IMG/VR virus record: IMGVR_UViG_3300029466_000004 | Coordinates: 9,952 to 73,951 of that record | DNA length: 64,000 nt | Source of the DNA: a virus | Lineage: Duplodnaviria; Heunggongvirae; Uroviricota; Caudoviricetes | Strand: one strand, 5' to 3' | Shown here: piece after piece, positions 180-64,000 of the stretch | Layout: every line of letters starts with the position of its first letter | Numbering within the stretch: the stretch's first letter is position 1 | Translations under genes and position numbers: made by a program | Notes under the pieces: generated by a model | Told to the model about the DNA's origin: nothing | Databases searched by the model: none | What the model saw: only the letters and a program-made list of their open reading frames with translations

Positions 180-194
180 GGAGGTAAACATTCT

Positions 195-5405: not shown

Positions 5406-5419
5406 GGAGGTGGCGGTTT

Positions 5420-5794: not shown

Positions 5795-5797
5795 CCT

Positions 5798-10278: not shown

Positions 10279-10290
10279 GAGGAGGATACT

Positions 10291-18929: not shown

Positions 18930-18951
18930 CTGCTCAATGTGCTACATCTGA

Positions 18952-22896: not shown

Positions 22897-23673
22897 ATGA
22901 ATGACATCATCTTATCCAACCAGAACGGCGAGCCGGTAGCATCTAGCCGTCAGATTGCAGAGAATTTCGACAAGAATCACCGTGACGTTCTTAGAGCGGT
23001 GGATAACCTCAAAGAAGATGTGCGCAATTTTGCGCAGATGTTCTTTGAAACCACCGTGCCGGACAGCTACGGCAGGGAACAGAGGGCTTACCTAATGAAC
23101 CGTGACGGTTTCACCCTGCTGGCTATGGGATTTACCGGAAAGGCGGCTCTTGAGTGGAAGCTCAAGTACATTGCAGCGTTCAACGAAATGGAGAAGAAGC
23201 TGGCTAAACAGCCGCAGCTTACCCGCTCGCAGCTCCTTGCAACTGCGCTGATCGCAGCGCACGAAGAGCTGGAAGAGAAGGACAAACGGATTGCAGAGCT
23301 GACACCTGATGCAGAGTTTGCTCGTGCTGTGTGCATTGCAGACAACTGCCGGACAGCCACCAGCATTGCAAAGGACTACGGTTTGACTGCTGAAAAACTG
23401 AACAAGCTGCTTTACAGCCAGCGAGTCCAGTACAAAGACAGCGATGGTCAGTGGGTGCTGTACAAGCCCTATCAAGGCAAGGGATACACCAAGAATCGAA
23501 AAGGCAAAGCCATTCAGCGCTCTAACGGCAAGACTTATATCCCGAACACGACGGTCTGGACGGTCGAGGGCGAAAAGCTCATCCATGAGCAGCTTAAGAA
23601 GCTGGGCATCACGCCGAGAATCGAGACCAAAGCTGTTGCAGAACAGCAGGATTTCGGTGGATGGGAGGACTGA
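22897..23673 (+). CDS. phage regulatory protein Rha / antirepressor
   Basis: N-terminal ...SSRQIAENFDKNHRDVLRAVDNL... Rha-like; paralog at 42722-43501. Confidence 0.65.
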   Translation: MNDIILSNQNGEPVASSRQIAENFDKNHRDVLRAVDNLKEDVRNFAQMFFETTVPDSYGREQRAYLMNRDGFTLLAMGFTGKAALEWKLKYIAAFNEMEKKLAKQPQLTRSQLLATALIAAHEELEEKDKRIAELTPDAEFARAVCIADNCRTATSIAKDYGLTAEKLNKLLYSQRVQYKDSDGQWVLYKPYQGKGYTKNRKGKAIQRSNGKTYIPNTTVWTVEGEKLIHEQLKKLGITPRIETKAVAEQQDFGGWED

Positions 23674-25626: not shown

Positions 25627-26151
25627 ATGACCGATAAGGAACTTGTCGAGTATCTTTGCAAATGGTTTTACGTTGATTCTGGAGGTACGTTACACAGAAA
25701 AGACAGGAAAAACAGTGCAGGAAGCTACGATAAAGACGGTTATTTGATTGTAAAAATCAAAGGGAAACAATACAAAGCACACCGCCTTGTATACGCACTT
25801 CATTATGGGCTAATGCCTATTGGAGTAATCGATCATATTAATGGAATCAGGACAGACAACAGGATTGAGAATCTTCGCTGCGTAACCCAAGCTGATAATG
25901 TTGCAAATACTGTTCAGGCCAGAAACACTTTAACTGGCGAGTACGGAATCTACGAAGACCGTTCAACGAAAGGTTTGAAACGCAAATATTCGTTCCACTT
26001 TAGCGGCAAAACATACCGATTCAAAACCATAGAAGAAGCTAAGAAAGCAAAAGATGCTTTATGGAAGGAGAAATATGGAAACACTTGTGAAGCTTTCCAA
26101 AATTCAAGGCGAGCTGAAAGCCCCAAAAAGCCAGCGCAATTCTTTTGGTAA
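25627..26151 (+). CDS. HNH homing endonuclease (HNH_3-like)
   Basis: YKAHRLVYALHYGLMPIGVIDHINGIRTDNRIENLRCVTQADN; 3' end overlaps the ERF start. Confidence 0.6.
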   Translation: MTDKELVEYLCKWFYVDSGGTLHRKDRKNSAGSYDKDGYLIVKIKGKQYKAHRLVYALHYGLMPIGVIDHINGIRTDNRIENLRCVTQADNVANTVQARNTLTGEYGIYEDRSTKGLKRKYSFHFSGKTYRFKTIEEAKKAKDALWKEKYGNTCEAFQNSRRAESPKKPAQFFW

Positions 26152-26677
26152 GTACAATTACCGCAGCTGCGAAGACATTCTGGAAGCAGTAAAACCACTC
26201 CTTGCGAAATACGGAGCCTGTCTTGTTCTTGAAGACGAGCCTGTACAGAGTGGCGAGTACCACTATATCAAAGCGACTGCAACAATCTACGATTCGGAGA
26301 CCGGAGACAAAATATCTAACACGGCATACGCCAGAGAGCCAAAGCAACAATCTGGTATGTCAGATTCCCAACTTACCGGCACTGCAAGCAGCTACGCCAG
26401 AAAGTACGCACTGAACGGTTTGTTCTGCATTGACGATACGAAGGACGCTGACACGGACGAGTACCAGAAGCAGACCACAAGCAGGGCAAACAAGCCTGCG
26501 CAGAAGCAAACGGAAGCGGAAACCATCCCCCCATGCGCTTGCTGCGGAAAGCAGTTGCAGCCTATTCAGTACAACAACCGCACAGTCACTCCGCTGGAAA
26601 CTGCAAGAAGCACGAAGAAACGCTTTGGGCGTGTCCTGTGTTGGGACTGTGCTCAGAAACAACCGAAGGAGGGCTAA
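26075..26677 (+). CDS. ERF-family single-strand annealing protein
   Basis: LSKIQGELKAPKSQRNSFGKYNYRSCEDILEAVKPLL typical ERF N-terminus; followed by SSB. Confidence 0.65.
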   Translation: METLVKLSKIQGELKAPKSQRNSFGKYNYRSCEDILEAVKPLLAKYGACLVLEDEPVQSGEYHYIKATATIYDSETGDKISNTAYAREPKQQSGMSDSQLTGTASSYARKYALNGLFCIDDTKDADTDEYQKQTTSRANKPAQKQTEAETIPPCACCGKQLQPIQYNNRTVTPLETARSTKKRFGRVLCWDCAQKQPKEG

Positions 26678-27399: not shown

Positions 27400-27584
27400 A
27401 CGAATGGAGAGATATAGTAAAAAATCCACCTCACAAATTGGATGGAGATTCGAGGGGGAACATTTTGGTTTGGTATAGCAATACGAAACGCGCAGAAGTT
27501 GTGAAAATGACCGTTGCGGTGTCGTTTCCTGACATTATGCCGTTCTGGATGCCACTCCCCAAACAACCAAAAGACAACGAATGA
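27396..27584 (+). CDS. DUF551-like small protein
   Basis: ...MPFWMPLPKQPKDNE C-terminus. Confidence 0.35.
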   Translation: MNEWRDIVKNPPHKLDGDSRGNILVWYSNTKRAEVVKMTVAVSFPDIMPFWMPLPKQPKDNE

Positions 27585-28114
27585 ACACCGGCAAGCAGTT
27601 TGAAGCGGACTTCAAAGCATCCGTTCCACCCGATGCGTGGTGCTACCGCCTGAAAGACAGTGCTGCCACATATTATGGCGGCAACGAGAACCTGTCATTC
27701 TCCATCGACAACATCTGTGACTTCCTTGTGTACCGTTACCCGATGAACCACCTGTTTGAACTGAAAACCATTGAAACGCCCTCTATCCCTCTGGAAAAGG
27801 TGTTCGGCAAGTACGACAAGGCAAAGTGCAAATACCGCAAGGAAAAGCACATCACAGACATGGTGGAAGCAATGGGGTACAGCGGTCAGACCGCTCATGT
27901 GATAGTCAATTACCGGGCAGTCAACCGCACCTTTGCAATCCCTGCCAGCAATGTTCTGGCGTTCCGATACAATGAAAGCCGCAAGAGCATCCCTTGGCAA
28001 TGGGCAGAGCAAGAGGGGATAGAGGTCAAAGCAAAAATGATGCGTGTCCATTGGCGGTATGACGTGGATGCGCTGTTAAAGAGATTGGAGAAAGAACATG
28101 GCAATGGTATTTAA
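27581..28114 (+). CDS. RecU-like Holliday-junction resolvase
   Basis: D..F...E.K pattern (DNICDFLVYRY...FELKTIE), size ~177 aa, recombination-module context. Confidence 0.4.
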   Translation: MNTGKQFEADFKASVPPDAWCYRLKDSAATYYGGNENLSFSIDNICDFLVYRYPMNHLFELKTIETPSIPLEKVFGKYDKAKCKYRKEKHITDMVEAMGYSGQTAHVIVNYRAVNRTFAIPASNVLAFRYNESRKSIPWQWAEQEGIEVKAKMMRVHWRYDVDALLKRLEKEHGNGI

Positions 28115-45587: not shown

Positions 45588-45893
45588 ATGCAGGGAGAAG
45601 AACTGATTTTTAAGAACGGAAGCATCACGCTACGGTCTATGCTTGATTTTGGTGGTTTCCTCGAAATCAAGCGGTTCTTGGAAGCCTGTCATTCGGAAAA
45701 CTGCACCGTGACTTTTGCAAACGAGGAAATTGTCATTTTTCCGAATGAATACGATGCTGCTAAAGATGCTCTCGTCTTTATTTACGGTACACTGGCAGAA
45801 AGACACGGCATTATCGAAAAGTATCTCCGCTATAAGCTGATGCTAGGAGATGAGCAACCAAAACCTACTTTACATAGTCAAAGAAAGGAATAA
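45588..45893 (+). CDS. hypothetical protein
   Basis: coupled ORF. Confidence 0.3.
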   Translation: MQGEELIFKNGSITLRSMLDFGGFLEIKRFLEACHSENCTVTFANEEIVIFPNEYDAAKDALVFIYGTLAERHGIIEKYLRYKLMLGDEQPKPTLHSQRKE

Positions 45894-46120
45894 AGCATGA
45901 AACCCGTAAAATTGTCAGAACAGAGTTTGAAGCTGATTGAAACGTTGTGCGATTACACCGACAAGCCCGATATCCTCAATGCCATCGCAGATGCCTTGTA
46001 CTATGACGCAGATGAATTGAAGCGCAGGCTAAACCAGCTTGCGGAAGAAGTCAAATAAACAGTGTGGCTTATTTGTGAAGATGAATTTTAGCAAATAATT
46101 TTCTAAAACAACATCATAAA
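45890..46120. repeat. direct repeat, left copy (~85% identity to 47370-47600)
   Basis: alignable over the 53-aa ORF plus ~60 bp downstream. Confidence 0.6.
45897..46058 (+). CDS. 53-aa protein, copy 1 (within the left direct repeat flanking rtcB)
   Basis: MKPVKLSEQSLKLIETLCDYTDKPDILNAIADALYYDADELKRRLNQLAEEVK; paralog at 47377-47538. Confidence 0.4.
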   Translation: MKPVKLSEQSLKLIETLCDYTDKPDILNAIADALYYDADELKRRLNQLAEEVK

Positions 46121-46143
46121 ATAAAATTGGAAAGGAGAACACA

Positions 46144-47358
46144 TTGAAAGCAATTTACGGTAAATATGCGTCTGCAAAGGTTTTTACGGACAATATTGAA
46201 GATAAGGCATCCGAGCAGATTCTAACGCTTTGCAATCAGAGCTTTGTTGATGGATGCAAGATTCGCATTATGCCAGACGTTCATGCTGGCTCTGGGTGCG
46301 TAATTGGGTTTACGGCAGACTTGGGAAAGAAAGTTATTCCCAATATTGTCGGCGTTGACATTGGCTGCGGAATGCTTGTTGCTGAACTCGGAATTGAACA
46401 TATTGACCCGGAAAAACTGGACAAAGTGATTAGAGAACGAGTTCCGGCTGGAATGAATGTTCACGAATCGCAGAAAATGTCGGATGCTTTCCTCCGTCAG
46501 CTTGATTGCAAAGATAGCCTTCATAATGTTGACTGGATTCTTCGCAGCATGGGCACTTTGGGCGGCGGAAATCATTTTATCGAGCTGGACGAAGATGAAG
46601 AGAAAAACCAGTACCTTGTTATCCATACTGGAAGCAGGAATCTCGGTAAACAAGTTGCAGAATATCATCAAAACGTAGCAATTTCTAATATCAAAGGAAA
46701 GAACAAAAGAAAAGAAGCTACGGAACGACTGATTGAGGAACTGAAAAAGCAAGGCCGTGAACAGGAAATTTCGAAAAAAATCAAAGAGCTGGATGTTCAG
46801 TTCCCCGATATTCCGAATGAGCTTTGCTATCTTGAAGGGAAAGAACGTGATTCTTACCTTAACGATATGCGGATTTGTCAGGCATTTGCGAAAATGAATC
46901 GGGCAAGAATTATGCATACCATTTTAGACGGCGTTGGAATAAATTCTATACTGACCCATGCGTCCTTCTTTGAAACCGTTCATAACTATATTGATGAATC
47001 GGATGATATTATCCGAAAAGGCTCTGTATCCGCTAGAGATGGTGAGAAGCTGATTATTCCTCTTAATATGAGAGACGGAAGCCTTATCTGTGTTGGCAAG
47101 GGCAATCCTGATTGGAATTTCTCTGCTCCGCATGGAGCTGGTAGGCTGTATAGTAGAACAGCGGCTAAAAAAGCATTCAGCGTTGAAGAATATCAAAAGC
47201 AGATGAACGGAATTTACACTACCTCAGCCGATGAATCCACGTTAGATGAATGCCCGATGGCATATAAGCCAGCACAGGAGATTATCAACGCAATCTCCCC
47301 AACAGTTGATATTGTAAAACACATTAAGCCCATTTACAATTTCAAAGCGGGAGAATAA
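46144..47358 (+). CDS. rtcB: RtcB-family RNA 3'-phosphate ligase
   Basis: MPDVHAGSGCVIG, VGVDIGCGM, GGGNHFIELDED, HTGSRNLG, PHGAGR motifs; TTG start with GGAAAGGAG RBS. Confidence 0.85.
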   Translation: MKAIYGKYASAKVFTDNIEDKASEQILTLCNQSFVDGCKIRIMPDVHAGSGCVIGFTADLGKKVIPNIVGVDIGCGMLVAELGIEHIDPEKLDKVIRERVPAGMNVHESQKMSDAFLRQLDCKDSLHNVDWILRSMGTLGGGNHFIELDEDEEKNQYLVIHTGSRNLGKQVAEYHQNVAISNIKGKNKRKEATERLIEELKKQGREQEISKKIKELDVQFPDIPNELCYLEGKERDSYLNDMRICQAFAKMNRARIMHTILDGVGINSILTHASFFETVHNYIDESDDIIRKGSVSARDGEKLIIPLNMRDGSLICVGKGNPDWNFSAPHGAGRLYSRTAAKKAFSVEEYQKQMNGIYTTSADESTLDECPMAYKPAQEIINAISPTVDIVKHIKPIYNFKAGE

Positions 47359-47369
47359 AACCGAAAGGA

Positions 47370-47600
47370 AAACGACATGAAAACCGCAAAATTGTCAGAT
47401 CAAAGCTTGAAGCTCATTGAAACGTTGTGTGATTACACCAACAAGCCGGATATTCTCAATGCCATCGCGGACGCTTTGTACTATGATGCAAACGAGTTGA
47501 AACGCAGGCTCAACCAGCTTGCAGAAGAAGTCAAATAAACTGTGCAACCCATTTATTAAGATGGATTTTAGTAAATAATTTTCTGAAGTGAAATTATAAA
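47370..47600. repeat. direct repeat, right copy
   Basis: see 45890-46120. Confidence 0.6.
47377..47538 (+). CDS. 53-aa protein, copy 2 (within the right direct repeat)
   Basis: MKTAKLSDQSLKLIETLCDYTNKPDILNAIADALYYDANELKRRLNQLAEEVK. Confidence 0.4.
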   Translation: MKTAKLSDQSLKLIETLCDYTNKPDILNAIADALYYDANELKRRLNQLAEEVK

Positions 47601-47669
47601 ACCGAATATTTGATTTTTGTGCAGTTGTAGGCACTCTTTACATTTTCAGGTAGGGGGTGCCTATTTTTT

Positions 47670-49337
47670 ATGCAGCCAAAACAGTGCATTGCCATCATCA
47701 ACAGCATCAAAGCGTATGCAAAGCAGAATCCGACAGAAGCACAGGTCTACGAGGACTGGTTTCAAGCGGTCGTGAATTTGAGGGACGCTCTGTCGCAAGA
47801 CAAGCGGTTCGATGCCTACAAATATTCTGGCGAGTTGCGCTCTGTCTGTGCAACCATGATGGGCAAGATGAAAACAGGTGAGGACGTGGCAAAAGTCTAT
47901 GACATTATCAGCCGAACGTACCTGTTTGAAGCAAAGGATGTATTTGACAGCTATTGCATCTACCTTGAATGGAACCGTGCGCCGGAAAAGAAGTTCTATC
48001 AGCCGAGAAGAAAGGTTCTTCTGACGTTGGTTCGTGACCTAGAGGACTTGTTTTTTCATCGTGTAGAATTTCTGGGAGTAAGTCAACCTCCGAGAACTGG
48101 AAAAAGTACGCTCTGTATATTTTTTATCACATGGCTGATGGGCAACCGCCCTGACGTTGCATCGGTTATGAGCGGACATTCCGACAAGCTGACCAATGGC
48201 TTCTATGGAGAAGTTCTGTCTATCATCACTGACCCCGTGACCTATAACTGGGGCAAAATCTTCCCTGACGTTCAGCTTGTAGATAAGAGTGCAAAAGACG
48301 AAAGCGTTGACCTGAACCGCAAAAAGCGTTTTCCCACTTTGACTTGCCGCTCCATTGGCGGTACGCTGACTGGCGCAGTTGAAATCGGCGAGGGCGGCGT
48401 TCTGTACAGTGATGACCTGATTGAGGACTTGGAGGAAAGCCTGAATGTTGAGCGTTTGAACAACAAATACGATGCCTACTTGAACCAGCTAAAAGACCGT
48501 AAAAAGCAGGGTGCATTGGAGCTGATGGTCGGCACACGCTGGAACGTGCTTGACCCTCTTGGACGCATCCAGAACCAGTATGCAGACAACCCAAAGTACA
48601 GATTTCGGGTGATTCCTGCGGTGGATGAGAACGGACACAGCAACTTCAATTATGACTATGGCGTTGGCTTTGACGATTCCTACTATGCCGACATGAAAGC
48701 CAGCATTGACGATGCAACATGGTGGGCAAAGTACATGGGTAAGCCCTATGTGCGTGAAGGCCTGCTGTTCCCTGCTGACGAACTGCGGTACTTCAACGGT
48801 GTTCTGCCTGACGGGGAACCTGATCGGAAGCTCATGGTCATGGATATTGCATGGGGTGGCGGTGACTTTACCGCCTGTCCTATCGCTTATGTGTACGGCG
48901 ATGCCGTGTTCATTCCTGACCTTGTGTTCAATAATGGCGATAAGACCTTGACCAGACCGGAAGTCGTGGGCAAAATCATCCAGCACAAAATCAATGTGGT
49001 GCGTGGCGAAGCCAACAACGGCGGCGATGAATACTGTGACGTAGTGGATAGCCAGCTCCGGCAGCAGGGCTATCACTGCTCTGTTCGCAGCCAACGTGCG
49101 CCCAGTGGTCAAAGCAAGCTGTCCAGAATTATCCAGTATGCGCCGGACATCAAGCGGTTTTACTTCCTTGACGAGAAACACCAGTCGAAAGAGTACAAGG
49201 CGTTCATGGAGCAGGTGACGATGTTTACGCAGCTTGGCAAAGTTTCGCACGATGATGCACCGGATAGTCTGGCACAGCTTGCCGATGAACTTTACAACGG
49301 AATCAGTAAAATCGAGCCTGTCAAGCGTCCATTTTGA
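47670..49337 (+). CDS. terL: terminase large subunit
   Basis: GVSQPPRTGKST Walker A; 555 aa; precedes the portal. Confidence 0.85.
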   Translation: MQPKQCIAIINSIKAYAKQNPTEAQVYEDWFQAVVNLRDALSQDKRFDAYKYSGELRSVCATMMGKMKTGEDVAKVYDIISRTYLFEAKDVFDSYCIYLEWNRAPEKKFYQPRRKVLLTLVRDLEDLFFHRVEFLGVSQPPRTGKSTLCIFFITWLMGNRPDVASVMSGHSDKLTNGFYGEVLSIITDPVTYNWGKIFPDVQLVDKSAKDESVDLNRKKRFPTLTCRSIGGTLTGAVEIGEGGVLYSDDLIEDLEESLNVERLNNKYDAYLNQLKDRKKQGALELMVGTRWNVLDPLGRIQNQYADNPKYRFRVIPAVDENGHSNFNYDYGVGFDDSYYADMKASIDDATWWAKYMGKPYVREGLLFPADELRYFNGVLPDGEPDRKLMVMDIAWGGGDFTACPIAYVYGDAVFIPDLVFNNGDKTLTRPEVVGKIIQHKINVVRGEANNGGDEYCDVVDSQLRQQGYHCSVRSQRAPSGQSKLSRIIQYAPDIKRFYFLDEKHQSKEYKAFMEQVTMFTQLGKVSHDDAPDSLAQLADELYNGISKIEPVKRPF

Positions 49338-49376
49338 TTAAAAACACAATATATTGTGTTCGCTGGGTCTATTTAT

Positions 49377-49406
49377 TTGATTTCACCACTTGACAAGGCT
49401 TATAAT
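49377..49406 (+). promoter_or_regulatory. sigma-A-like promoter (TTGATT-18-TATAAT) driving the non-coding/tRNA region
   Basis: ttgatt tcaccacttgacaaggct tataat. Confidence 0.4.
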
Positions 49407-49551
49407 GTACGCAGGAAGTTTTGCAGCTTCCCTTAAAGGAATAGCTTTCACGCGGGGTTTTGTCATTTTACTCGCGTGCGTGTCAACAAGCATATTCCTC
49501 CTTTCACCGGTGGAGGTTTTCTCACTCTTTCGCCTTCACCGGGCTTTATAT

Positions 49552-49632
49552 GTTGCGTTTCCAATTGTAAGGGGAATGCCAGCCTGTCTCCCCCACGGCT
49601 GGCAAGCAACGGTTCGATTCCGTTACGCAGCA
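49552..49632 (+). tRNA. tRNA-like element with canonical T-arm (GGTTCGATTCC) and acceptor pairing but oversized anticodon arm
   Basis: acceptor GTTGCGT/ACGCAGC; T-arm AACGG TTCGATT CCGTT; anticodon region folds as a 6-bp stem with a 12-nt loop. Confidence 0.25.
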
Positions 49633-49765
49633 CAACGATTCACTTCTGTTTTCATGGAAATTTTCCTTTTACAACCTCCAATCGTTATTCCCGGCTCTCG
49701 ATGAAATGGGTTTTGTGACATTTTACCATTTCAAAGAGCAACGATGAATTAAGCCGGGTACATGA

Positions 49766-49842
49766 CACAGAGTGGAGCAGTCTTGTAGCTCGTCGGGTTC
49801 ATAGCCCGAAGGTCGGTGGTCCAAATCCATCTTCTGTGCCCA
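49766..49842 (+). tRNA. tRNA with CAT anticodon (Met/fMet/Ile2-type), CCA encoded
   Basis: hand-folded cloverleaf: acceptor CACAGAG/TTCTGTG, D-stem GAGC/GCTC, anticodon stem TCGGG/CCCGA with loop TTCATAG, T-stem GGTGG/CCATC, discriminator C plus CCA; atypical D- and T-loops (no G18G19). Confidence 0.5.
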
Positions 49843-49993
49843 TCAGCGATTTGCTCCAGTCGGGGCAATCGTGGCTTTTGACACCCGACAAGTCAGAGCC
49901 TAGCACGGCTGGAAGTGCGAACAGTTTCCCAGTAGCTTCTGACAGGTCTGTGCTCAACAGCCTGTTTCCAGAAATTCAGCGAAAGGAGCGCTC

Positions 49994-50176
49994 ATGCTAG
50001 TTAGAATCTGTTGCCCTTGTATTAGGCAAAACCCAATCTATAAGAACGTCCGCTGCAATCGCTATCTTGGTGAAGTAGACGGACGATACCATTTCAAGTG
50101 CGACAGATGCAAGGGCGTTATCGAAGGAGACACAAGGGAAGGATGGGTAAAAATTATCCATCCACCGGAAAAGTAA
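49994..50176 (+). CDS. small zinc-ribbon protein
   Basis: CCPC...CNRY...CDRCKG. Confidence 0.3.
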   Translation: MLVRICCPCIRQNPIYKNVRCNRYLGEVDGRYHFKCDRCKGVIEGDTREGWVKIIHPPEK

Positions 50177-50267
50177 ATAGCTTTTGAAGCGCAGTTTTGG
50201 CGCAGTGAGATAGACCTTAACAGGTTTGTCTTGCTGCGCTTTTTATTTTGCCGGAAAGGAGGAACGC

Positions 50268-51770
50268 ATGGCTGAGTATCAGATGGTCGTTGGCGGTTTT
50301 TTGAATAATCCGCTGACCGGACGCAGACCGATTGAAACGCCGGAGACGGAAATCAATCGGGAGAACGTGCTGAAAGTGGTCATGGGCAAGGCAGAGCCTA
50401 TTCATCTGCTGAACAAGAATGAGATTCGCTTCTTGCACAATTACTACTTGGGCAGTCAGCCTGTTCTCCTCCGCACGAAGGAATATCACGCTGAAATCAC
50501 GAACCGCATTGTAGAGAACCACGCCAACGAGTGTGTGGGCTTCTACACAGGCTATATGAGCGGTACGCCGTGCTCTTATGTGCGGTCTGAAACGGCAACA
50601 GGTGACGGCGAGGAAATCGCCCGGCTGTCTAACGCCTTGCAGTATGAGGGCAAGGACGCGCTTGATCGGCGGCTCTGGCAGTGGATGTTGGAGTGCGGAC
50701 AGGGATACCGCATTGTTCTTCCTGACAAGGGGTATGGCGGTAACTACCCGGACGAAACACCCCTGCTGGTGGACGTTCCCGACCCGGACATGGCGTATGT
50801 GATTTACAACTCCGGCATCGGTCACAAGCCGATTGCCAACGTGCTGCACATTCCACGCAATTATCAGAACGACTTGAACGACCTGATTTGCGTGTACACG
50901 CCAAACCAGTACTTTGAAATCGACAACGGCAAGGTCACAAAATCGGAGAATCATTCTCTTGGAATGCTGCCGATGGTCGAATACAAGCTGAACCCGGAGC
51001 GTATGGGTCTGTTTGAACCGGCTATCCCCGTGCTGAATGCCATCAACGACCTTGAAAGCAACCGGCTGGACGGCGTGGCGCAGTTCATTCAGTCCATCAT
51101 GGTGTTTACGAACTGCCTTGTGGACGAGGATGCGCTCAACAAGGTTAAGAAACTTGGCGCAATGTGTCTGAAGTCCACCGCTGGTCTGCCTGCTTCTGTC
51201 TCACAGATTGCAAACGAGCTTGACCAGCAGCAGAGCCAGACCCTGCTTGATTCCATGTTGAACGTGTACCGCAGCCTGACTGCCATGCCTAGTGCAACCG
51301 GTAGCGAGAATGCAACGTCTGACAACGTGGGCGCAGTTATCGTCCGTAATGGCTGGAATCACACCGAAGCAAGGGCTCAGCAGTACGAGAATATGTTCAA
51401 GTTCTCGGAACGTCAAAGCCTGTCTGTGATGCTCAAAATTCTGCGTGATACGGCTGGTTCTAAGCTGATGGCAAGCGACATCAATATCAAACTGCCCCGC
51501 CGTCAGTACGATAACCAGCAGAGCAAGGTTCAGATTTTTGCACAGATGCTTAATCAGAGCATTGACCCGCAGTTGGCGTTTACTACGCCCGGTCTGTTCC
51601 CTGACCCGCAGGCTGCTTACGAAATGAGCAAGCCCTTCCTGATTGCCGCCGGAAAGCTAGGCAAGGATGGGAAAGCACCGAAGCCGCAGGAACAGCCCAC
51701 AGACCATATTGTTGACACCAACAAAATGGTCGGCGAACAGACTAATGCAAAGGAAGGAGAGCAAAAATGA
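50268..51770 (+). CDS. portal protein
   Basis: ~500 aa ORF immediately after TerL with AAGGAGG RBS; followed by scaffold and capsid. Confidence 0.7.
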   Translation: MAEYQMVVGGFLNNPLTGRRPIETPETEINRENVLKVVMGKAEPIHLLNKNEIRFLHNYYLGSQPVLLRTKEYHAEITNRIVENHANECVGFYTGYMSGTPCSYVRSETATGDGEEIARLSNALQYEGKDALDRRLWQWMLECGQGYRIVLPDKGYGGNYPDETPLLVDVPDPDMAYVIYNSGIGHKPIANVLHIPRNYQNDLNDLICVYTPNQYFEIDNGKVTKSENHSLGMLPMVEYKLNPERMGLFEPAIPVLNAINDLESNRLDGVAQFIQSIMVFTNCLVDEDALNKVKKLGAMCLKSTAGLPASVSQIANELDQQQSQTLLDSMLNVYRSLTAMPSATGSENATSDNVGAVIVRNGWNHTEARAQQYENMFKFSERQSLSVMLKILRDTAGSKLMASDINIKLPRRQYDNQQSKVQIFAQMLNQSIDPQLAFTTPGLFPDPQAAYEMSKPFLIAAGKLGKDGKAPKPQEQPTDHIVDTNKMVGEQTNAKEGEQK

Positions 51771-55758: not shown

Positions 55759-56156
55759 TTGATTATTTCAATTCCATCTACACGGCTGTTGCTAAGGAAC
55801 TGCGAAAGCAAGTTCCCGGTATCTTCGTTACTAGCGAAATTAGTGACAGCCCTGTTAAGAGGTTTCCGTGTGTGCAGATAGAGGAAAATAACAATTTGCC
55901 TGTGCATCTTGATTCTGCCGATCACAGCAAGTACGCCGCCGTTTCCCTGCGTGTGCGTGTCTACTCTAACAAGAACCCCGGGCGCAGTGCAGAAGCACGC
56001 TTTATTGTTGGAATCGTGGATTCTGTTCTCGAACCCAAAAAGTTCTATCGCAAATCGTTTGCCCCGTTGAATGGGCTGTACAACAATTCCGTCTATCGGA
56101 TTGATTGCAGCTATGGGGCAACAATCGGAGAGGACGGAATGATTTACCGAAACTAA
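55755..56156 (+). CDS. tail terminator / tail completion protein
   Basis: immediately upstream of the major tail protein; C-terminus homologous to 1-179. Confidence 0.4.
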   Translation: MIDYFNSIYTAVAKELRKQVPGIFVTSEISDSPVKRFPCVQIEENNNLPVHLDSADHSKYAAVSLRVRVYSNKNPGRSAEARFIVGIVDSVLEPKKFYRKSFAPLNGLYNNSVYRIDCSYGATIGEDGMIYRN

Positions 56157-56171
56157 GGAGGTAAACATTCT

Positions 56172-56609
56172 ATGAGTACTGCTATCTCCGGTCTGAATAC
56201 CACCCTGTATTGTGGTGCTACCGAGTCTGCATTGACGAAGTTGTGTGACATCAAGGATGTCCCGGATATGATTTCCGATCCGAACCTTCTGGATGCCACC
56301 ACCCTGTCTGATCCGATGCAGAAGCAGATTTTTGGTATTAACCAGTCCGATATTAAGGCGTTTACCGCAAACTACAACAAGGAAGATTACGAATCGGTTC
56401 AGAAAGCTGGCTACGATGAATCTGCCGAAGAGAACCCCGACAAGTACTATGCAATTAAGATGCAGGACGGCTCCGGATTCACTTGGCAGGGTATGCATCA
56501 GGTTGGTCTGTCCGGCTTTGGCGTGGATGAGGTTGTGGAAATGACCATCAACTGCATTTTCCACACCAAGCCGAAGTTCGTTAAGGCGCTGACCATCAAC
56601 GGCGGCTAA
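56172..56609 (+). CDS. major tail protein (second copy)
   Basis: ~85% aa identity to 195-632. Confidence 0.55.
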   Translation: MSTAISGLNTTLYCGATESALTKLCDIKDVPDMISDPNLLDATTLSDPMQKQIFGINQSDIKAFTANYNKEDYESVQKAGYDESAEENPDKYYAIKMQDGSGFTWQGMHQVGLSGFGVDEVVEMTINCIFHTKPKFVKALTINGG

Positions 56610-56693
56610 ACCGCAAAAATCGAATCAATCAAACCGGGCAGAACTGAACATTGGATTTGGTTCTGCCCCTATTTATAAAGGAGAGCATTTATT

Positions 56694-57041
56694 ATGGCTG
56701 CAAAGGTTATCAATTATCATTCCCCCGATGGCAAGAACACTTATGAACTAACTTTCACCCGTGACAGCGTGGAAGCCGCCGAACGTGCAGGTTTTCAGAT
56801 TGGTCAGTACACCCAGATGATCAATCTGCTGTCCAACTCCCGTGCTCTGTTCTACGGCGCTTTCATTGCACGGAACAAGGGCATCAAGCGCAAGGACGTT
56901 GACGAGATGTTCCAGCATACCGAGGAGAAGGAAGAACTGATGGGCATTTTGCTTGAGATGTTCATGGATGCTTCTAAGTCTCTGCTGGCGACTGACACTG
57001 AGGACAAGACCGCAAAAAACGCAACGTGGGAGATTGTGTAA
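56694..57041 (+). CDS. tail assembly chaperone (gpG-like)
   Basis: homolog of 717-1064; conserved slippery AAAAAAC. Confidence 0.6.
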   Translation: MAAKVINYHSPDGKNTYELTFTRDSVEAAERAGFQIGQYTQMINLLSNSRALFYGAFIARNKGIKRKDVDEMFQHTEEKEELMGILLEMFMDASKSLLATDTEDKTAKNATWEIV

Positions 57042-57448
57042 CCGCACAATCTCAAGAATCAGACGGAGAGGGAGAACCGTTTTCCTTCTCCAAGCTGTTC
57101 CACGATGTAGAAGCCTATTACATCTCCATCGGCATGACCTACGACCAGTTCTGGTACGGCGATGTCTGGCTGGCTAAGGTATACCGTGACGCAGAGGAGC
57201 TGCGAGAACGCAGAGCCAATGCAGAAGCATGGAGAAACGGTTTTTACATGGCATCTGCGCTTTCCTCTACGGTTGGCAATATGTTCCGAAAAAAAGGGTC
57301 TAGCCCCATCAAGTACATGGATAGACCGATTCCCCTTACTCAAAAGGAGAAAGACGAGTATGAATACCAACGCGCAGTTGAAGCGCAGGAGCGAATCAAG
57401 AGAATGATGTTCTCTATGATGGAAAGTGATGGTGGTAGCGATGGCTGA
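57026..57448 (+). CDS. tail assembly chaperone -1 frameshift extension (gpT-like)
   Basis: homolog of 1049-1471. Confidence 0.5.
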   Translation: MGDCVTAQSQESDGEGEPFSFSKLFHDVEAYYISIGMTYDQFWYGDVWLAKVYRDAEELRERRANAEAWRNGFYMASALSSTVGNMFRKKGSSPIKYMDRPIPLTQKEKDEYEYQRAVEAQERIKRMMFSMMESDGGSDG

Positions 57449-60400
57449 TGTTGATATTACGAGCTTATCCGTAGAAATCTCTGCGGAATCGCAGGGCGCA
57501 GAGCTTAATATCGACAAGCTCGCTACCGCCATTTCTAATTTGCGGACAAAGGGCAACGTGACAAAGGTCGTCAACAGCCTTGATAAGCTGTCCGCTTCCA
57601 TTTCTGCGCTGAAACAGGCGTCTGCTGGCCTGTCTGGGCTGGACAAAATCACCAGCTTTTTGAATGGAATTTCCAATGTCAACACGACTGCAAGCACAAA
57701 GAGCATCAACACGGTCGTAAATGCAATCAAGAAGATTCCTACGGCAGTCTCCGGCTTGAACGGCGTGGACTTCTACTCCATGTCTGGAAGCATTACTCAG
57801 CTCACCAACGCTTTGGCTCCGCTGTCTATTTTGGACGCATCAAACCTTAAAGCTCTTGGCAGCGCTTTCAATGCGATCGGAAAAGTTCCTGATCTGACCG
57901 ACAAGCTGAAAGCAACAGACCTTGATTCTTTTGCAAGCTCTTGTCAGAAGATTTCTGCTGCCCTTACTCCCCTTGCATCTCAGCTTGACAAGGTTGGCAA
58001 CGCTTTTGCAAAGCTGCCGCCGCAGTTGAGCAAGGTGGTCACACAGGCAAACCGTGTGACTGCTGCCAACGAACGACAGAAAAAAAGCTATCTCAGCCTG
58101 TCTAACCAGCTGAATGGTTTCATGCTGTCTGCGAAAAAGCTGGTTTCGCTGAAAGCTATTGCTGAGTATCTTGGCAAAGCTGTTGCGAAATTCAATGACT
58201 TTTACGAAGCGACAGACCTGTTTCATAATGCTATGGGCAATTTGAGCGGTGAAGCAGATACGCTCATTAGCAAGATGCAAGGCCTGCTTGGAGTTGACCC
58301 GACCAAAGCGATGACCTACATGGCCACCATCCAGAGCTTAGGTACTTCGTTTGGTTTGGCCAGCGACAAAGCTTACGTTCTGTCTAAGAACCTGACTCAG
58401 CTTGCCTATGACGAAGGTTCCTATTGGAACAAGGACGTTGCAGAAACCTTTACCGCAATGTCTTCCGCAATCTCTGGCGAGATTGAGCCTATTCGCCGTT
58501 TGGGCGTTGACTTGTCTCAAGCACGGTTACAGCAGGAGCTTCTTGCTTTAGGCTTTAACAAACAGGTTTCTAGTCTGTCTCAGGCAGATAAGGCGGTTCT
58601 GCGTTACATTGCCATTATGAAGCAGACTGCCAACGTGCAGGGTAATCTTGCGCAGACCATCCAAAGCCCTGCGAACCAGATTAAGATTCTGAAAGCTCAA
58701 CTTGATATGTTGGCAAAGTCTGTTGGTTCTCTGCTCTACCCTGCCATGAAATCCATTCTTCCTCCGCTGATTGCCGCCGTGCAGCTCATTCGAGAGTTCG
58801 TTGAATGGGTGGCAAAGCTGATGGGTGTGAAGGTCGTGTTCACTGATTTCACCAAGAGCGCTGACAGTGTTGGCGGTATCGGCGACGCAATGGATAATAC
58901 AGCCGATTCGACAAAGAAAGCCGCCAAAGCCCTCAAGGACTACACGATGGGCTTTGATGAATTGAACATCATTGACCCCACACAGGGAAGCTCTGGCTCT
59001 GGCAGCGGCGCATCTGCTGGCAACATCTTGGGCGATGTAGACCTGTCCGGCTACGATATGTTCAAGCAGTACAATGAAGAGTTTGCAAAGCAGATTGACG
59101 CTATAAAGCAGAAAATCAAAGATATGCTGCCGGTTATTGGCGCTATTTCTGCTGCACTCGCATTGTGGAAAATCACCAATTTCCTGACGAACATTGCAAC
59201 AGCAATTTCTAAAATGACGGATTTGCAAAAGTTGGCTCTTTCGATTGCAACAGTTGTTGTCGAAGCATCGTTAGTATTCAGTTTTGCAAAAGGCTACGCA
59301 TCTAGTGGAAATCCTCTTGAGCTTTTAGGCGAAGTGGTGTCTGCTGCGTTTGGCTCTTTTGTTCTTTGGCGCACAATGGGCGCGGATGGCGTTACGCTTG
59401 GCATGGGCATCGCTTTTGTGGCGAGCCTTGCAGGTCTTACTTATGCACTTGGTACTGGCGAAGCCAATCTTGGCGATGCAAGCACATGGATTCAGGCTGC
59501 TTTAACAACGGCATTCGGTTCTATTACTGGTATCACACTGCTCACCAATCTTGGAGCAGCCTCTGGTACAGCCGCAACGCTTTCTATCGGTCTTGCAGGT
59601 CTTATTACCTTTGCGGGAATTACATTCTCGCTTGGTGAAAAGCTGAAAGAATTTCCCGTTCTTGACACCATCATCACTGCTCTGATGGGGATTTTTGGCG
59701 GTGCTGCTGGTGCTGGCGTTGCATTGCTTGTTGGTGCAAGCCTTCCTGTTGCTGGGGCCGTTGCCGCTGCTGGTGTCGGTATTGGCCTTGTTCTTCACTG
59801 GGCTGGTATCAAATGGGGCGCTAAAGAGAGCGGCGAAAAAACAGATGCTGCCGCAGAAGCCGACATTAAAATGCATTATGTCGAAAATGTTTTTGAGCAG
59901 CGTATCGATGCCATCAAACAAATCATTGTCACTAAGTGGAACGCTGTCATTGACTTTATGACTTCTCTGCCTGAAAAGGTTGGGAACATCGTAAGTAGCA
60001 TTGGCGAGTGGTTCAGCTCTCTTCCTGAAAAAATCGGCTATGCCCTTGGCTTTGCCGTCGGCAAAATCGGGGAGTGGGTCGAAAACATGATCGTTACTGT
60101 AACAACCGAAGTTCCAAAAATCGTTTCGTCTGTTGTTAAGTTTTTTGAAGAACTGCCGGGGAATATTTGGACTGCAATTCTCAAAGCTCTTGACGTTATT
60201 TCTAAATGGCGGGAGCGCATGATAGCTTTCGTTGTTATTGAAGTTCCAAAAATCATTTCGTCTATTGTCGGCGAGTTCAAAAAGCTTCCTGACAAATTGA
60301 GAAAGCTTGGAAAATTCATCTGGGATGGCCTAATCAACGGCCTAAAAGATGCATGGAGTACCGTTACAAATGGTATTAAGAGCTTCACTGATGGCTTTGT

Positions 60401-61523
60401 CAATGGCTTCAAAGATGCGCTTGAAATTCATTCTCCTTCGCAAGTGTTTCACCAAATCGGTGTTTATGTCGTTCAAGGCCTTGCAAACGGCATCACTGGC
60501 TCCCTCGGTTATGTCAACGATGCTACGAATAAACTCGTAGACGCCACCAAGCTCAAGGGCGAAGAGGTGGTGGATTATGGCATCGAATGCGGTACCGGCT
60601 ACGTCAACGGAATCATTTCCGGGCTAGACTCTAAGTGGGCCGAACTCGACAACAACCTCAAAACCAACTTCTTCGGTACGGTGCAAACTTTCATTCAGGC
60701 CGCGCAGAGTGGCGACTGGAAAACAGTCGGCACTACTATTGCTGCTTCCATCTGGGGCGCTATGGGCGATGAGCAGCGTAAACGCGTCAAGTCCGTTGCA
60801 AGCGATTTGCTTGGCAGACTGAGCAAAGAATTGAAAAGCCAAGCTTCTTCCCTGCTGAATACAGCCGCTACCATTGGCAAAAATCTGGTGAGCGCACTGA
60901 CTCAGAATTTTGGCGCTGCCACACAAAATACGGCAAAGATGGTCGAGAACATTACCAGCGTGTTCACTAAATCGAAGACTCCGCTCTCGACCGCAGCGCT
61001 TGCAATCAGTAAAGGCTTGTCTGGCGGATTACTGAGCCAGTTCCCGAAGATGCTTGCTGGCGTAGCTGGTTTGATTACTACGATTGGCGGCGCTTTTACC
61101 GCCATGCTGGAAGCAATCGGTGGCACGTTGTCTGTACTTGGCATTCCTACTGGCTTTGCAATGGTTGCCGGTGGCGTGGCGATTGCCGCTGCTATCGCAG
61201 GCATTATTGGCAGTATCAGCCGTTCTAACTATAGCGACAGTTCTCAGTATGCTGGCACATCCAGTTATGACTCTACCTATGGGTCTGGTTCGTATAGTGG
61301 CACCTATTCTGCCGCAAGTGGAAACTCCGAAGAGATGAGAGATGCTGTGTACAACGGCTGCTACAATGCATTTCTTGACATCTGGCAGCGGTACGGAGAA
61401 GCAATCTCCGATGGCAGAGATGTGAAAGTGTACCTCGATGGCAAGCAGCTCACTGCTTCCGTTGAAAAAACGCAGAAAGAACGTGGCATGTCCATTATGG
61501 GTACTGAAGTTTACTCTTACTAA
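57441..61523 (+). CDS. tail tape measure protein (1361 aa)
   Basis: N-terminal 40 aa near-identical to the 1464 copy, diverged central region, conserved C-terminus ...GTEVYSY. Confidence 0.85.
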   Translation: MADVDITSLSVEISAESQGAELNIDKLATAISNLRTKGNVTKVVNSLDKLSASISALKQASAGLSGLDKITSFLNGISNVNTTASTKSINTVVNAIKKIPTAVSGLNGVDFYSMSGSITQLTNALAPLSILDASNLKALGSAFNAIGKVPDLTDKLKATDLDSFASSCQKISAALTPLASQLDKVGNAFAKLPPQLSKVVTQANRVTAANERQKKSYLSLSNQLNGFMLSAKKLVSLKAIAEYLGKAVAKFNDFYEATDLFHNAMGNLSGEADTLISKMQGLLGVDPTKAMTYMATIQSLGTSFGLASDKAYVLSKNLTQLAYDEGSYWNKDVAETFTAMSSAISGEIEPIRRLGVDLSQARLQQELLALGFNKQVSSLSQADKAVLRYIAIMKQTANVQGNLAQTIQSPANQIKILKAQLDMLAKSVGSLLYPAMKSILPPLIAAVQLIREFVEWVAKLMGVKVVFTDFTKSADSVGGIGDAMDNTADSTKKAAKALKDYTMGFDELNIIDPTQGSSGSGSGASAGNILGDVDLSGYDMFKQYNEEFAKQIDAIKQKIKDMLPVIGAISAALALWKITNFLTNIATAISKMTDLQKLALSIATVVVEASLVFSFAKGYASSGNPLELLGEVVSAAFGSFVLWRTMGADGVTLGMGIAFVASLAGLTYALGTGEANLGDASTWIQAALTTAFGSITGITLLTNLGAASGTAATLSIGLAGLITFAGITFSLGEKLKEFPVLDTIITALMGIFGGAAGAGVALLVGASLPVAGAVAAAGVGIGLVLHWAGIKWGAKESGEKTDAAAEADIKMHYVENVFEQRIDAIKQIIVTKWNAVIDFMTSLPEKVGNIVSSIGEWFSSLPEKIGYALGFAVGKIGEWVENMIVTVTTEVPKIVSSVVKFFEELPGNIWTAILKALDVISKWRERMIAFVVIEVPKIISSIVGEFKKLPDKLRKLGKFIWDGLINGLKDAWSTVTNGIKSFTDGFVNGFKDALEIHSPSQVFHQIGVYVVQGLANGITGSLGYVNDATNKLVDATKLKGEEVVDYGIECGTGYVNGIISGLDSKWAELDNNLKTNFFGTVQTFIQAAQSGDWKTVGTTIAASIWGAMGDEQRKRVKSVASDLLGRLSKELKSQASSLLNTAATIGKNLVSALTQNFGAATQNTAKMVENITSVFTKSKTPLSTAALAISKGLSGGLLSQFPKMLAGVAGLITTIGGAFTAMLEAIGGTLSVLGIPTGFAMVAGGVAIAAAIAGIIGSISRSNYSDSSQYAGTSSYDSTYGSGSYSGTYSAASGNSEEMRDAVYNGCYNAFLDIWQRYGEAISDGRDVKVYLDGKQLTASVEKTQKERGMSIMGTEVYSY

Positions 61524-61529
61524 GAAAGG

Positions 61530-61916
61530 ATGGTTCAGATGGCCAATATTCCTGCACTGGTTACGGTGAATGGCGTAGAGCTGCCGGAACCCTCCTCTTA
61601 TGAGGGAACGACTAGCACGATCGTGGACTCTGGGCGAAATGTTCAGGGTAAAGTTGTTGGCGCTGTCGTACGACATGACGTAGCAAAAGTCTCCATGTCA
61701 TGGAACTACCTCACCGCACGGCAGTGGGCCGACATCTTGAGTCTTTTCACTACGAATTTTTACTGCACTGTTAAATTCTATAACCAAGCCACAGCCGGTT
61801 ATACCACCCGTCAGATGTACGTCTCCGACCGCACCGGCGGAATGTGGCGTAGAGGGCCGAAAACCGGTGGCGTGATGGGATGGACGGGGTGCAAACTTTC
61901 TCTTGTGGAGGTATGA
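61530..61916 (+). CDS. small tail protein (homolog of 5420-5794)
   Basis: ~80% aa identity. Confidence 0.4.
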   Translation: MVQMANIPALVTVNGVELPEPSSYEGTTSTIVDSGRNVQGKVVGAVVRHDVAKVSMSWNYLTARQWADILSLFTTNFYCTVKFYNQATAGYTTRQMYVSDRTGGMWRRGPKTGGVMGWTGCKLSLVEV

Positions 61917-61920
61917 CACA

Positions 61921-64000
61921 TGGTTGAAGTCTCCGATAAGTGGAAAGAAAAATTTAACGAAACGCTCGTCCCGGAATCTTTTGTAGAGATTACCTGTGGA
62001 ATTACTGAACCTGGCATCAACAAAAAGGCTACCATCGTCACGTCATCGGCGGCCCCGTTCTCCACCTTTCACAATATTGCGCTTTCTGATAACGCTTCCA
62101 TTTCAAGATATTCCACAGGAGAGCCCAATCTCACTGTTCTTGATGGAAGCTGTAGCATCGTTCCTTCTTCTCCTCCGTATGGAACTACTGGTTTTTTGAG
62201 CGCCGAGATTTTTGACGATTCAAGTCACCCTGTTATTCGGCTTGAGCTTCCGAGCGAAAACAAATCTTCGATTCCCGGTGTTTCAATTTGCTGGTCTACA
62301 GCGTTTAACGAATACGCTACAGATTTTTCGGTCAGCGCATATCTTGGAGCCAAAAAGCTGAAAACCGTGACTGTGAACGGAAACAAATCCATTCGTTCTG
62401 ACGTTGAAGTAGAACTTTCCGGGTTTGATGCTGTAGAGCTAGAGGTGCTGAAGTGGTGTCTCCCCGACCGAAGAGTAAGGGTCGAGCAAGTGAAAATCGG
62501 AAGGTATCTGGTGTTTGACAAGACCAAAATCTTGTCCTACAGCCATTCTTCTGCAAGAGACCCTATCTCCGGGCAGCTTTCTCAGGAGTCGATTTCCTTT
62601 AGTTTAGACAACAGTGACCGCGCATGGGACTCCGTAAACCCTCAAGGGATTTACAAGTACATCTATGAGCGCCAGCCTGTCACCGTTCGTTATGGAATGG
62701 ATGTTGATGGAAAGACTGAATGGGTGAGCGGAGGAATGTTCTTCCTGTCGGAGTGGAGCGTCCCTGCCAACAGTATTGAGGCGTCCTTTCAGGCGCGAGA
62801 CGCTTTCCTGTATCTATCCAGCACGAAGTACACCGGAAGAAAATACGGCACGCTCTATGAGATGTGCTACGATGCCTTGGAGCTGTTGGAAGCGGATGAA
62901 ATTACCTTCGATATTTCGGATGAACTGAAAGATTACTCCACCGACATTACAAGCGATGAGTCTACTTATCACAATTCCGATATTTTGCAGCTTGCGGCAA
63001 ACGCTGCTGGAATGGCTTTGTACCAGACTCGTGATGGCGTGATAAAAATTAACAGAGTCTACGGAGCCGATACATCCAATCCCGTGTTGGACATTCCAGT
63101 ACTGAACAATTATTCTTGGCCGGAAATCACCTTTGCTCAAAATATGCTCAACGTGGTGACCACCGCAGGTGGCGTTACCTACGCTTATCCCGAAAGCCCT
63201 TCGGGCAAAGGCGTCAGCCAGACTTTGAGCAATGTTATGCTCACAAAGGACATCCTTGCAAAATCCAGGAATGCCCTTACAGAGTCTTATGGAGTCCTTT
63301 CCAACCGCCGCAAGGCTTCTCTCACATATCGGGCAAGCCCTACTATTGATGCTCTTGATATGGTAAAGATTCACCATCAGTTCAATTACGATGCTGTCTT
63401 GCTGGCAACCAATGTAAAGTACACTTTCAATGGGTGTTTCAAAGGTACTGTAGAGGGGTACATGATGGCAGATGCTCAGGCTATGTCTCTTGACCATACC
63501 AGCGAACAGCTTGGATGGGGCGAGTCCGTTATTTTGTCTGCTACCCTCTCCCCTGCTTCTATTGACTCTCCTAAAATCAACTGGGCAGCTTCTCCCGAAG
63601 GAATCGTCTCCCTTCACGTTCTGACGAATGCAGAAGGAAAATCCACCTGCCAAGTCAAGTGGAACTCTCCGGGCAAGGCTGTTGTCACAGTTTCAGCAGG
63701 CGGCGTCTCCGCAGAATGTTCCTTCGCTACGGCGTCGTACAATCTGTTTGATGTTGCGGAAGGCAGCACCGTTCTTATGAATGAGGGTGGCAACGTGGCC
63801 GAGTTCATCGTTGCAAAACATGACTACGAAAGCGAGCTGAATGGAGTCGGGCGAACTCTTCTGGTTCGAAAACACTACGCGGCTATCATGGCTTGGAGCT
63901 CTACATGGTCTACTTACGCCAGCAGCAGCGTAAACAGCTGGCTCAACGGAGAGTACTTCAACTCTTTCAGCTCCGCCCAGAAGCAAGCTATCGACAAGAC
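61921..64000 (+). CDS. distal tail / baseplate protein, 3' partial (homolog of 5798-7405 with extra C-terminal Ig-like region)
   Basis: MVEVSDKWKEKFNETLVPESF... aligns with MVQPSQKWVEKFSETLVPEMF...; open to the window end. Confidence 0.5.

Follow-up and report, generated by a model that had tools for sequence, protein, structure and literature searches.

Why should the RNA ligase gene of a gut phage lie between two long direct repeats, directly upstream of the gene for the large terminase subunit? The question is raised by a stretch of 64,000 nucleotides (nt) of a Caudoviricetes virus, positions 9,952 to 73,951 of the IMG/VR record IMGVR_UViG_3300029466_000004, which in its full length we call the window. 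There, rtcB stands just upstream of terL, and on each side of rtcB is a copy of a gene for a 53-amino-acid (aa) protein, p53. The original prediction, made from the letters alone, read this pattern as a duplicated insertion hotspot or a mobile rtcB cassette. We find that the interval is an accessory-gene hotspot. We also find that the order p53-rtcB-p53-terL is the window's own, and that each of its two junctions is known separately in related phages. Thus, we consider it probable that the window is a recombinant of two common genome types, and that the repeats are a by-product of their joining.

The repeats and the two p53 alleles

The locus is built from the following parts.

45883-46121, plus strand: left direct repeat, holding a ribosome-binding site, p53-L (45897-46058) and the 5' part of the terL leader (46059-46121)
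46144-47358, plus strand: rtcB, RNA 3'-phosphate/5'-OH ligase, 404 aa, TTG start
47363-47601, plus strand: right direct repeat, holding a ribosome-binding site, p53-R (47377-47538) and the 5' part of the terL leader (47539-47601)
47670-49337, plus strand: terL, large terminase subunit (phrog_38, 4.8e-54), the conserved right border of the slot discussed below

A repeat search over 44500-49000 returned one long direct repeat, a gapless pair of 239 nt that is 83% identical and spaced 1480 nt start to start. Self-BLAST of the whole window recovered the same pair (E = 6e-67), and the identity is far beyond chance. The bracketing of rtcB by repeats upstream of terL is therefore real, while the sizes first given for them, about 220 base pairs (bp) and 85% identity, were slightly off. 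Each repeat contains a ribosome-binding site, an intact 53-aa open reading frame (ORF) and 63 shared nt downstream, much as had been described (a 53-aa protein plus about 60 bp). Part by part, the repeats agree at 10/14 positions of the leader, 142/162 of the coding sequence and 47/63 of the tail. They share no exact run longer than 17 nt, and unequal crossover between them would only rarely delete or amplify rtcB.

How old is the pair? Specifically, p53-L and p53-R differ at 19 codons, 14 of them synonymously; nonsynonymous divergence (dN) is 0.040, synonymous divergence (dS) is 0.74 and dN/dS is 0.055. Single copies elsewhere are up to 95.6% identical to p53-R and at most 88.3% identical to p53-L. 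When 260 loci are compared, 207 carry a p53 closer to p53-L than p53-L is to p53-R, and 200 carry one closer to p53-R. Thus, the two are long-separated alleles under strong purifying selection, neither a recent nor a decaying duplication. Because dS is about 0.74 and each copy is nearer to single-copy alleles than to the other, we read them as alleles joined by recombination. Searches detected no relatives of p53 outside this phage family. Its predicted structure is a confident three-helix model, for which no informative structural neighbours were found.

A hotspot upstream of terL

Relatives were gathered from IMG/VR by searches with p53-R, p53-L, RtcB and TerL. The searches yielded hundreds of loci, on contigs of about 55-60 kb, and removal of duplicates left 178 distinct relatives (single loci are given L numbers below). 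Two genes lie at the end of the slot away from terL.

45005-45586, plus strand: small serine recombinase of the resolvase/invertase type, 193 aa (Pfam Resolvase 1.6e-35, phrog_125 3.4e-52), the conserved left border of the slot
45561-45893, plus strand: orf110, a 110-aa variable-slot gene, directly 5' of a single p53 in many relatives

Between the serine recombinase and terL, 170 distinct slot sequences hold more than 15 unrelated cargo families: conserved flanking genes enclose many unrelated, alternative cargo genes. The slot is an accessory-gene hotspot in a large family of human-gut phages of about 56 kb, which are probably phage-plasmids. More than 590 related stretches are found in IMG/VR by TerL.

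The arrangements within the slot answer much of the question. Most of the 178 distinct relatives (103) carry p53-terL, 35 carry rtcB-p53-terL, 37 carry rtcB-terL without p53, one carries p53-(two small genes)-rtcB-terL and two carry neither p53 nor rtcB. The order p53-rtcB-p53-terL occurs in the window only. In all 178 relatives p53 is single-copy or absent, and so each of the 73 distinct relatives that bear rtcB has one p53 or none. The empty site that had been foreseen, a single p53 without rtcB, exists in those 103 loci, and none of the 178 has two 53-aa genes and no rtcB, an arrangement that had been proposed as a sign of duplication. In the sample of loci chosen by TerL, rtcB is present in 12 of 76 (about 16%) and p53 in 41 of 76. 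Thus, rtcB is frequent yet dispensable cargo, and the suspicion of an insertion hotspot with rtcB as an accessory gene was correct: the slot is a true site of insertion and replacement. In viral and metagenome contigs (IMG/VR, JGI), neither the exact double arrangement nor the junction of a p53 tail with rtcB had a match. The GTDB representative genomes hold no p53 and only two distant TerL relatives, and the NCBI assembly GCA_001292545.1 holds an rtcB-p53-terL relative.

Individual relatives show where the slot ends. Two GenBank sequences from human faeces, L001 and L002, are 85-90% identical to the window on both sides of the slot and contain neither p53 nor rtcB; a different 105-aa gene lies between the recombinase or orf110 and terL. 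Since their homology with the window picks up again at 47561, within the tail of the right repeat, the last part of the repeat is normal terL upstream sequence. The same resumption is seen in L228, behind yet another gene. Finally, L061 (5221-6776) has an insertion of three genes (117, 96 and 216 aa) between p53 and terL, which begins with a remnant of the 3' end of orf110 and lies at the leader motif considered next.

A leader motif at the borders of rtcB

On both sides of rtcB, in every context examined, there is a 12-nt leader motif, ATAAAACCGAAT. In relatives it is found ahead of rtcB (28 nt from the start), ahead of p53 (22-29 nt from the ATG) and between p53 and terL, 60 nt past the p53 stop and 75 nt short of the terL ATG. 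Over 1.92 Mb of sequence from relatives, the plus strand has 439 copies and the minus strand 7, with about 16 expected per strand. Almost all copies in the slots examined sit at the p53, rtcB and terL leaders, and the motif is present 2-4 times, in this slot only. Promoter and hairpin scans found no canonical sigma-70 site or hairpin at the motif; a canonical promoter in the leader was thus a candidate that the scan did not detect. Copies in the window are as follows.

46116-46127, plus strand: degenerate copy ATAAAATAAAAT (3 substitutions) at the junction of the left repeat with the rtcB 5' untranslated region (UTR); the intact version stands at the same junction in the T-type loci L180, L205 and L207
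47355-47366, plus strand: copy ATAAAACCGAAA, holding the rtcB stop codon TAA, at the junction of rtcB with p53-R
47596-47607, plus strand: copy ATAAAACCGAAT in the terL leader, left half of an imperfect 20-bp palindrome (47598-47617); breakpoint of other insertions (L061, T-type rtcB loci)

Four contexts of rtcB are known. The gene comes after a 45-nt conserved leader ("P") or after the 5' part of the leader of terL ("T"), and before p53 or, directly, the remainder of the terL leader. In each context the downstream motif copy contains the rtcB stop codon, and the P leader and the rtcB 5' UTR have about 21 nt in common (the motif plus the ribosome-binding site). Some breakpoints lie away from the motif, namely in L163 and at the left edge of the P leader. 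Taken over these contexts, the recurrent boundary of rtcB is the 12-nt motif, not the 239-nt repeats.

The window itself falls into two known pieces. Positions 44985-46121 are collinear with the recombinase-orf110-p53 type (L098, 90.7% over 1141 nt). From 46116 to 49400 the collinear partner is the rtcB-p53-terL type, with L041 92.1% identical over 3288 nt, and the 6 nt common to both pieces lie inside the motif. Specifically, the left junction (the 5' part of the T leader, the motif, TGGAAAGGAGAAC, rtcB) is the junction of T-type L180, L205 and L207, and the right junction, from rtcB to p53, is that of all rtcB-p53 relatives. The combination of the T leader upstream and p53 downstream of rtcB is seen in the window only.

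A probable recombinant of two genome types

Our preferred account starts from a population in which rtcB resides either in the p53 leader (rtcB-p53-terL) or in the terL leader (rtcB-terL, with p53 sometimes further upstream). One parent of the window would have carried rtcB in the terL leader, downstream of p53, and the other would have carried it upstream of p53. One homologous crossover within the 1.2-kb rtcB gene would be the simplest route; a crossover at the short leader motif would be an alternative, less simple route. The product, p53-rtcB-p53-terL, would bring two old p53 alleles and the 5' parts of two terL leaders side by side, and these would constitute the 239-nt repeat. The reciprocal product would be P-leader-rtcB-terL, an arrangement abundant in the database. 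Although we infer the crossover itself, the anatomy of the locus, the arrangements in relatives, the identities of the junctions and the age of and selection on the copies are matters of direct comparison. The agent might have been host RecA or the phage's own annealing recombinase.

26054-26677, plus strand: ERF-family single-strand-annealing recombinase (Pfam ERF 3.6e-46)

Recombination at short or diverged homology could plausibly be the work of this ERF enzyme; a RecU-like protein is weakly matched at 27581-28114.

Mosaicism is pervasive in this population. The rtcB alleles are patchworks, 85-100% identical in each 135-nt interval. Compared with L041, the window has 0-1 mismatches over 46600-47400, 8-16 per 100 nt before it and 4-8 after it, and 46600-47400 is identical to the IMG/VR contig L041/L144, from which the sequence on either side departs by 8-10%. 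Further along, 47572-51688 is 98.8% identical to L308, whose cargo differs. These patterns of identity place breakpoints near the borders of the units: rtcB, then p53, then the terL leader. Martinsohn et al. in 2008 and De Paepe et al. in 2014 reportedly described relaxed homologous recombination by phage Rad52-like annealases as a source of mosaicism. Likewise, the element has an ERF annealase and a patchwork of identity with breakpoints every few hundred bases, although the enzyme's part is here presumptive.

Several points weigh against a recombinant origin. Neither IMG/VR nor the JGI metagenomes yielded the exact left parent, an orf110-p53-leader-rtcB-terL genome in which nothing else separates p53 from rtcB; near analogues such as L205 and L207 have two small genes there. 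Because no sampled allele matches p53-L at more than 88.3%, the p53-L lineage is poorly sampled. The left motif copy, with its 3 substitutions, is degenerate. Finally, there is some small chance that the join was made by an assembler and not in a cell.

Other explanations of the repeats

Such an assembly chimera would require a sample with both p53-leader-rtcB-terL and rtcB-p53-terL phages, in which the assembler switched haplotype within the shared rtcB stretch. The window does run through two related haplotypes for more than a full genome (2-1730 and 55979-57707 match at 88%, with an offset of about 56 kb), both junctions are known separately in nature, the exact RtcB protein is on no record and the double arrangement is unique. 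However, closely spaced mosaic breakpoints are the rule across the population, in independently assembled contigs, so that a real recombinant is equally expected; in addition, the contig is long and otherwise collinear with relatives. We regard a chimera as unlikely. Duplication in place is a reading that we hold to be highly improbable. On this view p53 was duplicated in tandem and its copies diverged, and rtcB either entered between them or was copied together with one of the two; direct repeats around a gene are the classical outcome of duplication. Yet a dS of 0.74 needs an old duplication, and two copies are present in 0 of 178 relatives. Moreover, each p53 copy has closer matches among the alleles of single-copy genomes than in its partner, and both junctions are standard in single-copy genomes. 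We give next to no credence to the idea, part of the original prediction, that rtcB is a mobile cassette which generated or used the approximately 220-bp repeats, as a long target duplication or as attL/attR. The anatomy of this one window suits it, but all 73 distinct rtcB-bearing relatives have one p53 or none, and the p53 alleles are old (dS 0.74). Within 45883-47601 neither a mobility gene such as a transposase nor a terminal inverted repeat was found, rtcB alone standing between the repeats, and the 63-nt tail is normal terL leader, present whatever gene precedes terL. The repeats as cassette ends, att sites or target duplication are thus contradicted.

Could the motif, instead of the repeats, be the active sequence? 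In this case, ATAAAACCGAAT would be the core of a site-specific recombination site, and rtcB, p53 and others would be cassettes inserted, excised and reordered upstream of terL, possibly by the adjacent small serine recombinase or by another phage enzyme. If so, a phage-plasmid family would possess an integron-like platform for cassettes, of which the window would show three in an array. The same rtcB segment occurs in two leaders that share only the motif, with the motif on both sides each time. In addition, the insertion point in the terL leader is the centre of the imperfect 20-bp palindrome, between its halves AAAACCGAAT and ATTTGATTTT; the different three-gene insertion of L061 breaks at the same motif; and a serine-recombinase gene is always adjacent. 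Nonetheless, dyad symmetry is seen at the terL-leader copy only, the other three contexts having none, and the rtcB-p53 junction is 6 nt short of a precise exchange. The recombinase alleles are 28-98% identical while the motif is invariant, with no co-variation, and other cargo of the slot (a yjcQ-like gene, a 126-aa gene and orf110) is not flanked by the motif. With approximately 21 nt in common, the P leader and the rtcB 5' UTR share enough sequence to recombine by annealing. The element encodes ParA and Rep_3; resolving multimers would be the simpler task for a small resolvase there, and its site is better sought in a 32-bp perfect palindrome ahead of the resolvase operon. All told, we think a site-specific system very unlikely.

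Comparison with known systems

The slot resembles the accessory-gene hotspots (moron or diversity hotspots) of phages such as P2 and P4 (PMC9122126). As in those, a short interval between core genes accommodates many alternative, mostly unknown cargo genes, and breakpoints lie at conserved intergenic sequences. The differences are that the phage family is another one, that the slot lies directly upstream of terL, within the terL leader, and that the cargo so far comprises an RNA ligase and small ORFans, with no recognised defence systems.

A second likeness is to the shuffling of genes by PeSLs in T4-type phages (PMC2839356, PMC4122927). There, too, directly oriented copies of a short, conserved motif (leader or regulatory) surround non-essential ORFs, and relatives differ where these copies have recombined. 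The ORFs in between can be duplicated, deleted or swapped by such exchanges (PMC2839356, PMC4122927). In the gut phages, likewise, the motif occurs in one orientation far above chance, and breakpoints fall at it in the join of the window, in the T- and P-type rtcB junctions and in L061. In contrast, PeSLs are composites of an early promoter and terminator stem-loops, about 50 nt or more in length and present in tens per genome (PMC2839356, PMC4122927). The core here is 12 nt (about 21 nt with the ribosome-binding site) and is present in 2-4 copies in this slot only. By composition, then, the motif, at which the scans show no canonical promoter or stem-loop, is not a PeSL.

Other systems were considered and set aside. 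In a transposon with target-site duplication the repeat would accompany rtcB, which it does not do elsewhere, and there is neither a mobility gene nor terminal inverted repeats. An integron-like array is disfavoured by the neighbouring recombinase, which is of the serine type and not a tyrosine IntI, and by the motif copies next to rtcB and p53, which have no dyad symmetry. Nor does the motif look like a serine resolvase/invertase site of the res, hix or gix type (a dyad of about 26-32 bp): symmetry is confined to the terL-leader copy, and there is no co-variation with the recombinase. Finally, a genomic accordion, in which a counter-defence gene is amplified, does not describe a locus with a single rtcB copy in which only the neighbouring gene is doubled.

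The RtcB ligase and its possible role

The original prediction held rtcB to be complete, with all catalytic motifs, and this is so. The ORF matches Pfam RtcB (PF01139) at 2e-62, scoring 212 bits over the whole domain where the curated cut-off is 27, and phrog_1075, "tRNA splicing ligase," at 5e-133. In an alignment to the solved structures 2epg and 4dwr, the catalytic blocks MPDVHAG, VDIGCG, GGGNHF, HTGSRNLG and APHGAGR are kept. They comprise the metal-binding Asp, Cys and His residues and the guanylylated His (HGAGR). A database lookup found no record anywhere of the exact RtcB protein of the window, and no RtcA, Pnkp or archease partner was seen in the element.

What could such a ligase do for a phage? 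A counter-defence role in RNA repair is plausible; RtcB would reseal RNAs cut by metal-independent host ribonucleases. The substrates of RtcB, 3'-phosphate or 2',3'-cyclic-phosphate ends that it joins to 5'-OH ends, make VapC-type PIN nucleases, which the original prediction also named, a doubtful target. This joining reaction is established biochemistry (PMC7824862), and the undoing of host tRNA cleavage has been proposed for phage RtcB since 2011 (PMC3203893). In the literature searched, no experiment ties any phage RtcB to a defined defence system. Other phages also possess the enzyme, namely mycobacteriophages of subcluster K1, Bacillus SPO1-like phages and some jumbo phages (PMC3203893, PMC7824862). 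In these, likewise, rtcB is a stand-alone, non-core ligase gene, with a proposed role in resealing tRNAs or other RNAs cut by host defence ribonucleases. Compared with those, the RtcB of the window is of the short (404-aa) type and is encoded beside terL, in a temperate or plasmid-like gut phage.

Several RNA features of the element may be recorded here. A tRNA-Met (CAT) gene at 49766-49842 lies between terL and the portal gene and is present also in relatives without rtcB; a second tRNA gene is at 12337-12407. A match to the RAGATH-5 RNA (53.9 bits, gathering score 50) is found at 40206-40256 on the minus strand, within a minus-strand gene cluster, and about half of the relatives have one. 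We considered a link between rtcB and this ribozyme-candidate RNA, ribozyme ends being possible RtcB substrates, and found no association (6/10 versus 23/53).

Reading of the locus and other features of the element

Around the slot, further features bear on how its genes would be expressed.

44649-44677, plus strand: sigma-70-like promoter candidate, TTGACA-17-TACAAT, 11/12 consensus matches
44676-45005, plus strand: HTH109, a 109-aa ORF, first gene of the operon, 30-99% conserved in relatives
47627-47664, plus strand: hairpin, a 15-bp stem followed by a U-run (U6), immediately 5' of the terL ATG (z = -4.0)

Behind the promoter candidate the gene order is HTH109, serine recombinase, orf110, p53, rtcB, p53, and the last three would be read from the promoter-like site near 44649. 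In the window rtcB has lost the P leader that is found before it in most relatives, and it would be transcribed by read-through from 44649. Neither HTH109 nor orf110 matches a family in Pfam or PHROG. The serine recombinase is present in nearly all relatives, its alleles being 28-98% identical. A perfect 32-bp palindrome (44569-44600; 15-bp arms, AA centre) is single-copy in the window and kept in L001 and many relatives. It lies between divergent promoter-like sites at 44471 (minus strand) and 44649 (plus strand), upstream of the HTH109-serine recombinase operon, and is a candidate operator or res site.

The hairpin before terL is almost invariant in more than 200 relatives, with the Shine-Dalgarno sequence within its stem. 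In L226 (61% TerL identity) a different, weaker hairpin stands at the same place (z = -1.5). The hairpin may be a terminator, an antitermination target or a translational switch of the late operon; an SPP1-type portal gene comes after terL. In L004 (5241-7964) and many other relatives, the Walker A loop of TerL is interrupted in frame by about 330 aa that follow GK, begin with ALSDDTPIL, contain LAGLLDTDG and end with THN before ST. The insertion is an intein with a LAGLIDADG endonuclease, and it is absent from terL of the window. A link between rtcB and the split terL of some relatives was also considered; relatives with and without rtcB show the split, which is due to this in-frame intein and not to an intron.

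The rest of the element has a plasmid-like cast. A NikA-like protein, a ParA ATPase and a Rep_3 replication initiator are encoded at 16740-20073 on the minus strand, and the ORFs scanned include no integrase; the element looks like a phage-plasmid, not an integrated prophage. The start of the window, 2-7276, resembles its end, 55979-63359, at 68-88% identity with an offset of about 56 kb, or one genome length. Thus, the contig runs over two related haplotypes, as a co-integrate, a tandem arrangement or an assembly switch. Two Rha/KilAC antirepressor paralogues lie in opposite orientation, at 22897-23673 on the plus strand and 42722-43534 on the minus strand. A 113-nt inverted repeat (23089-23201 and 43173-43285), 20 kb apart, was considered as an invertase substrate and proved to be these two paralogues. 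Finally, G+C content is 0.56-0.59 in 10000-16000, versus 0.43-0.51 elsewhere; this region holds a GH25 lysin gene (10412-11212) and ORFs without family matches.

What the locus means

The mechanisms invoked here are known ones, and beyond the points that follow little changes. The locus illustrates that direct repeats around a cargo gene can be a by-product of recombination and need not mark mobility. From the side of phage genome evolution, it provides a natural, well-populated example of one accessory gene shuffled around a short conserved leader motif beside terL. From the side of phage defence and counter-defence, rtcB is frequent but dispensable in an abundant family of human-gut phages, which makes the family a convenient place to test phage RtcB against RNA-cleaving defences.

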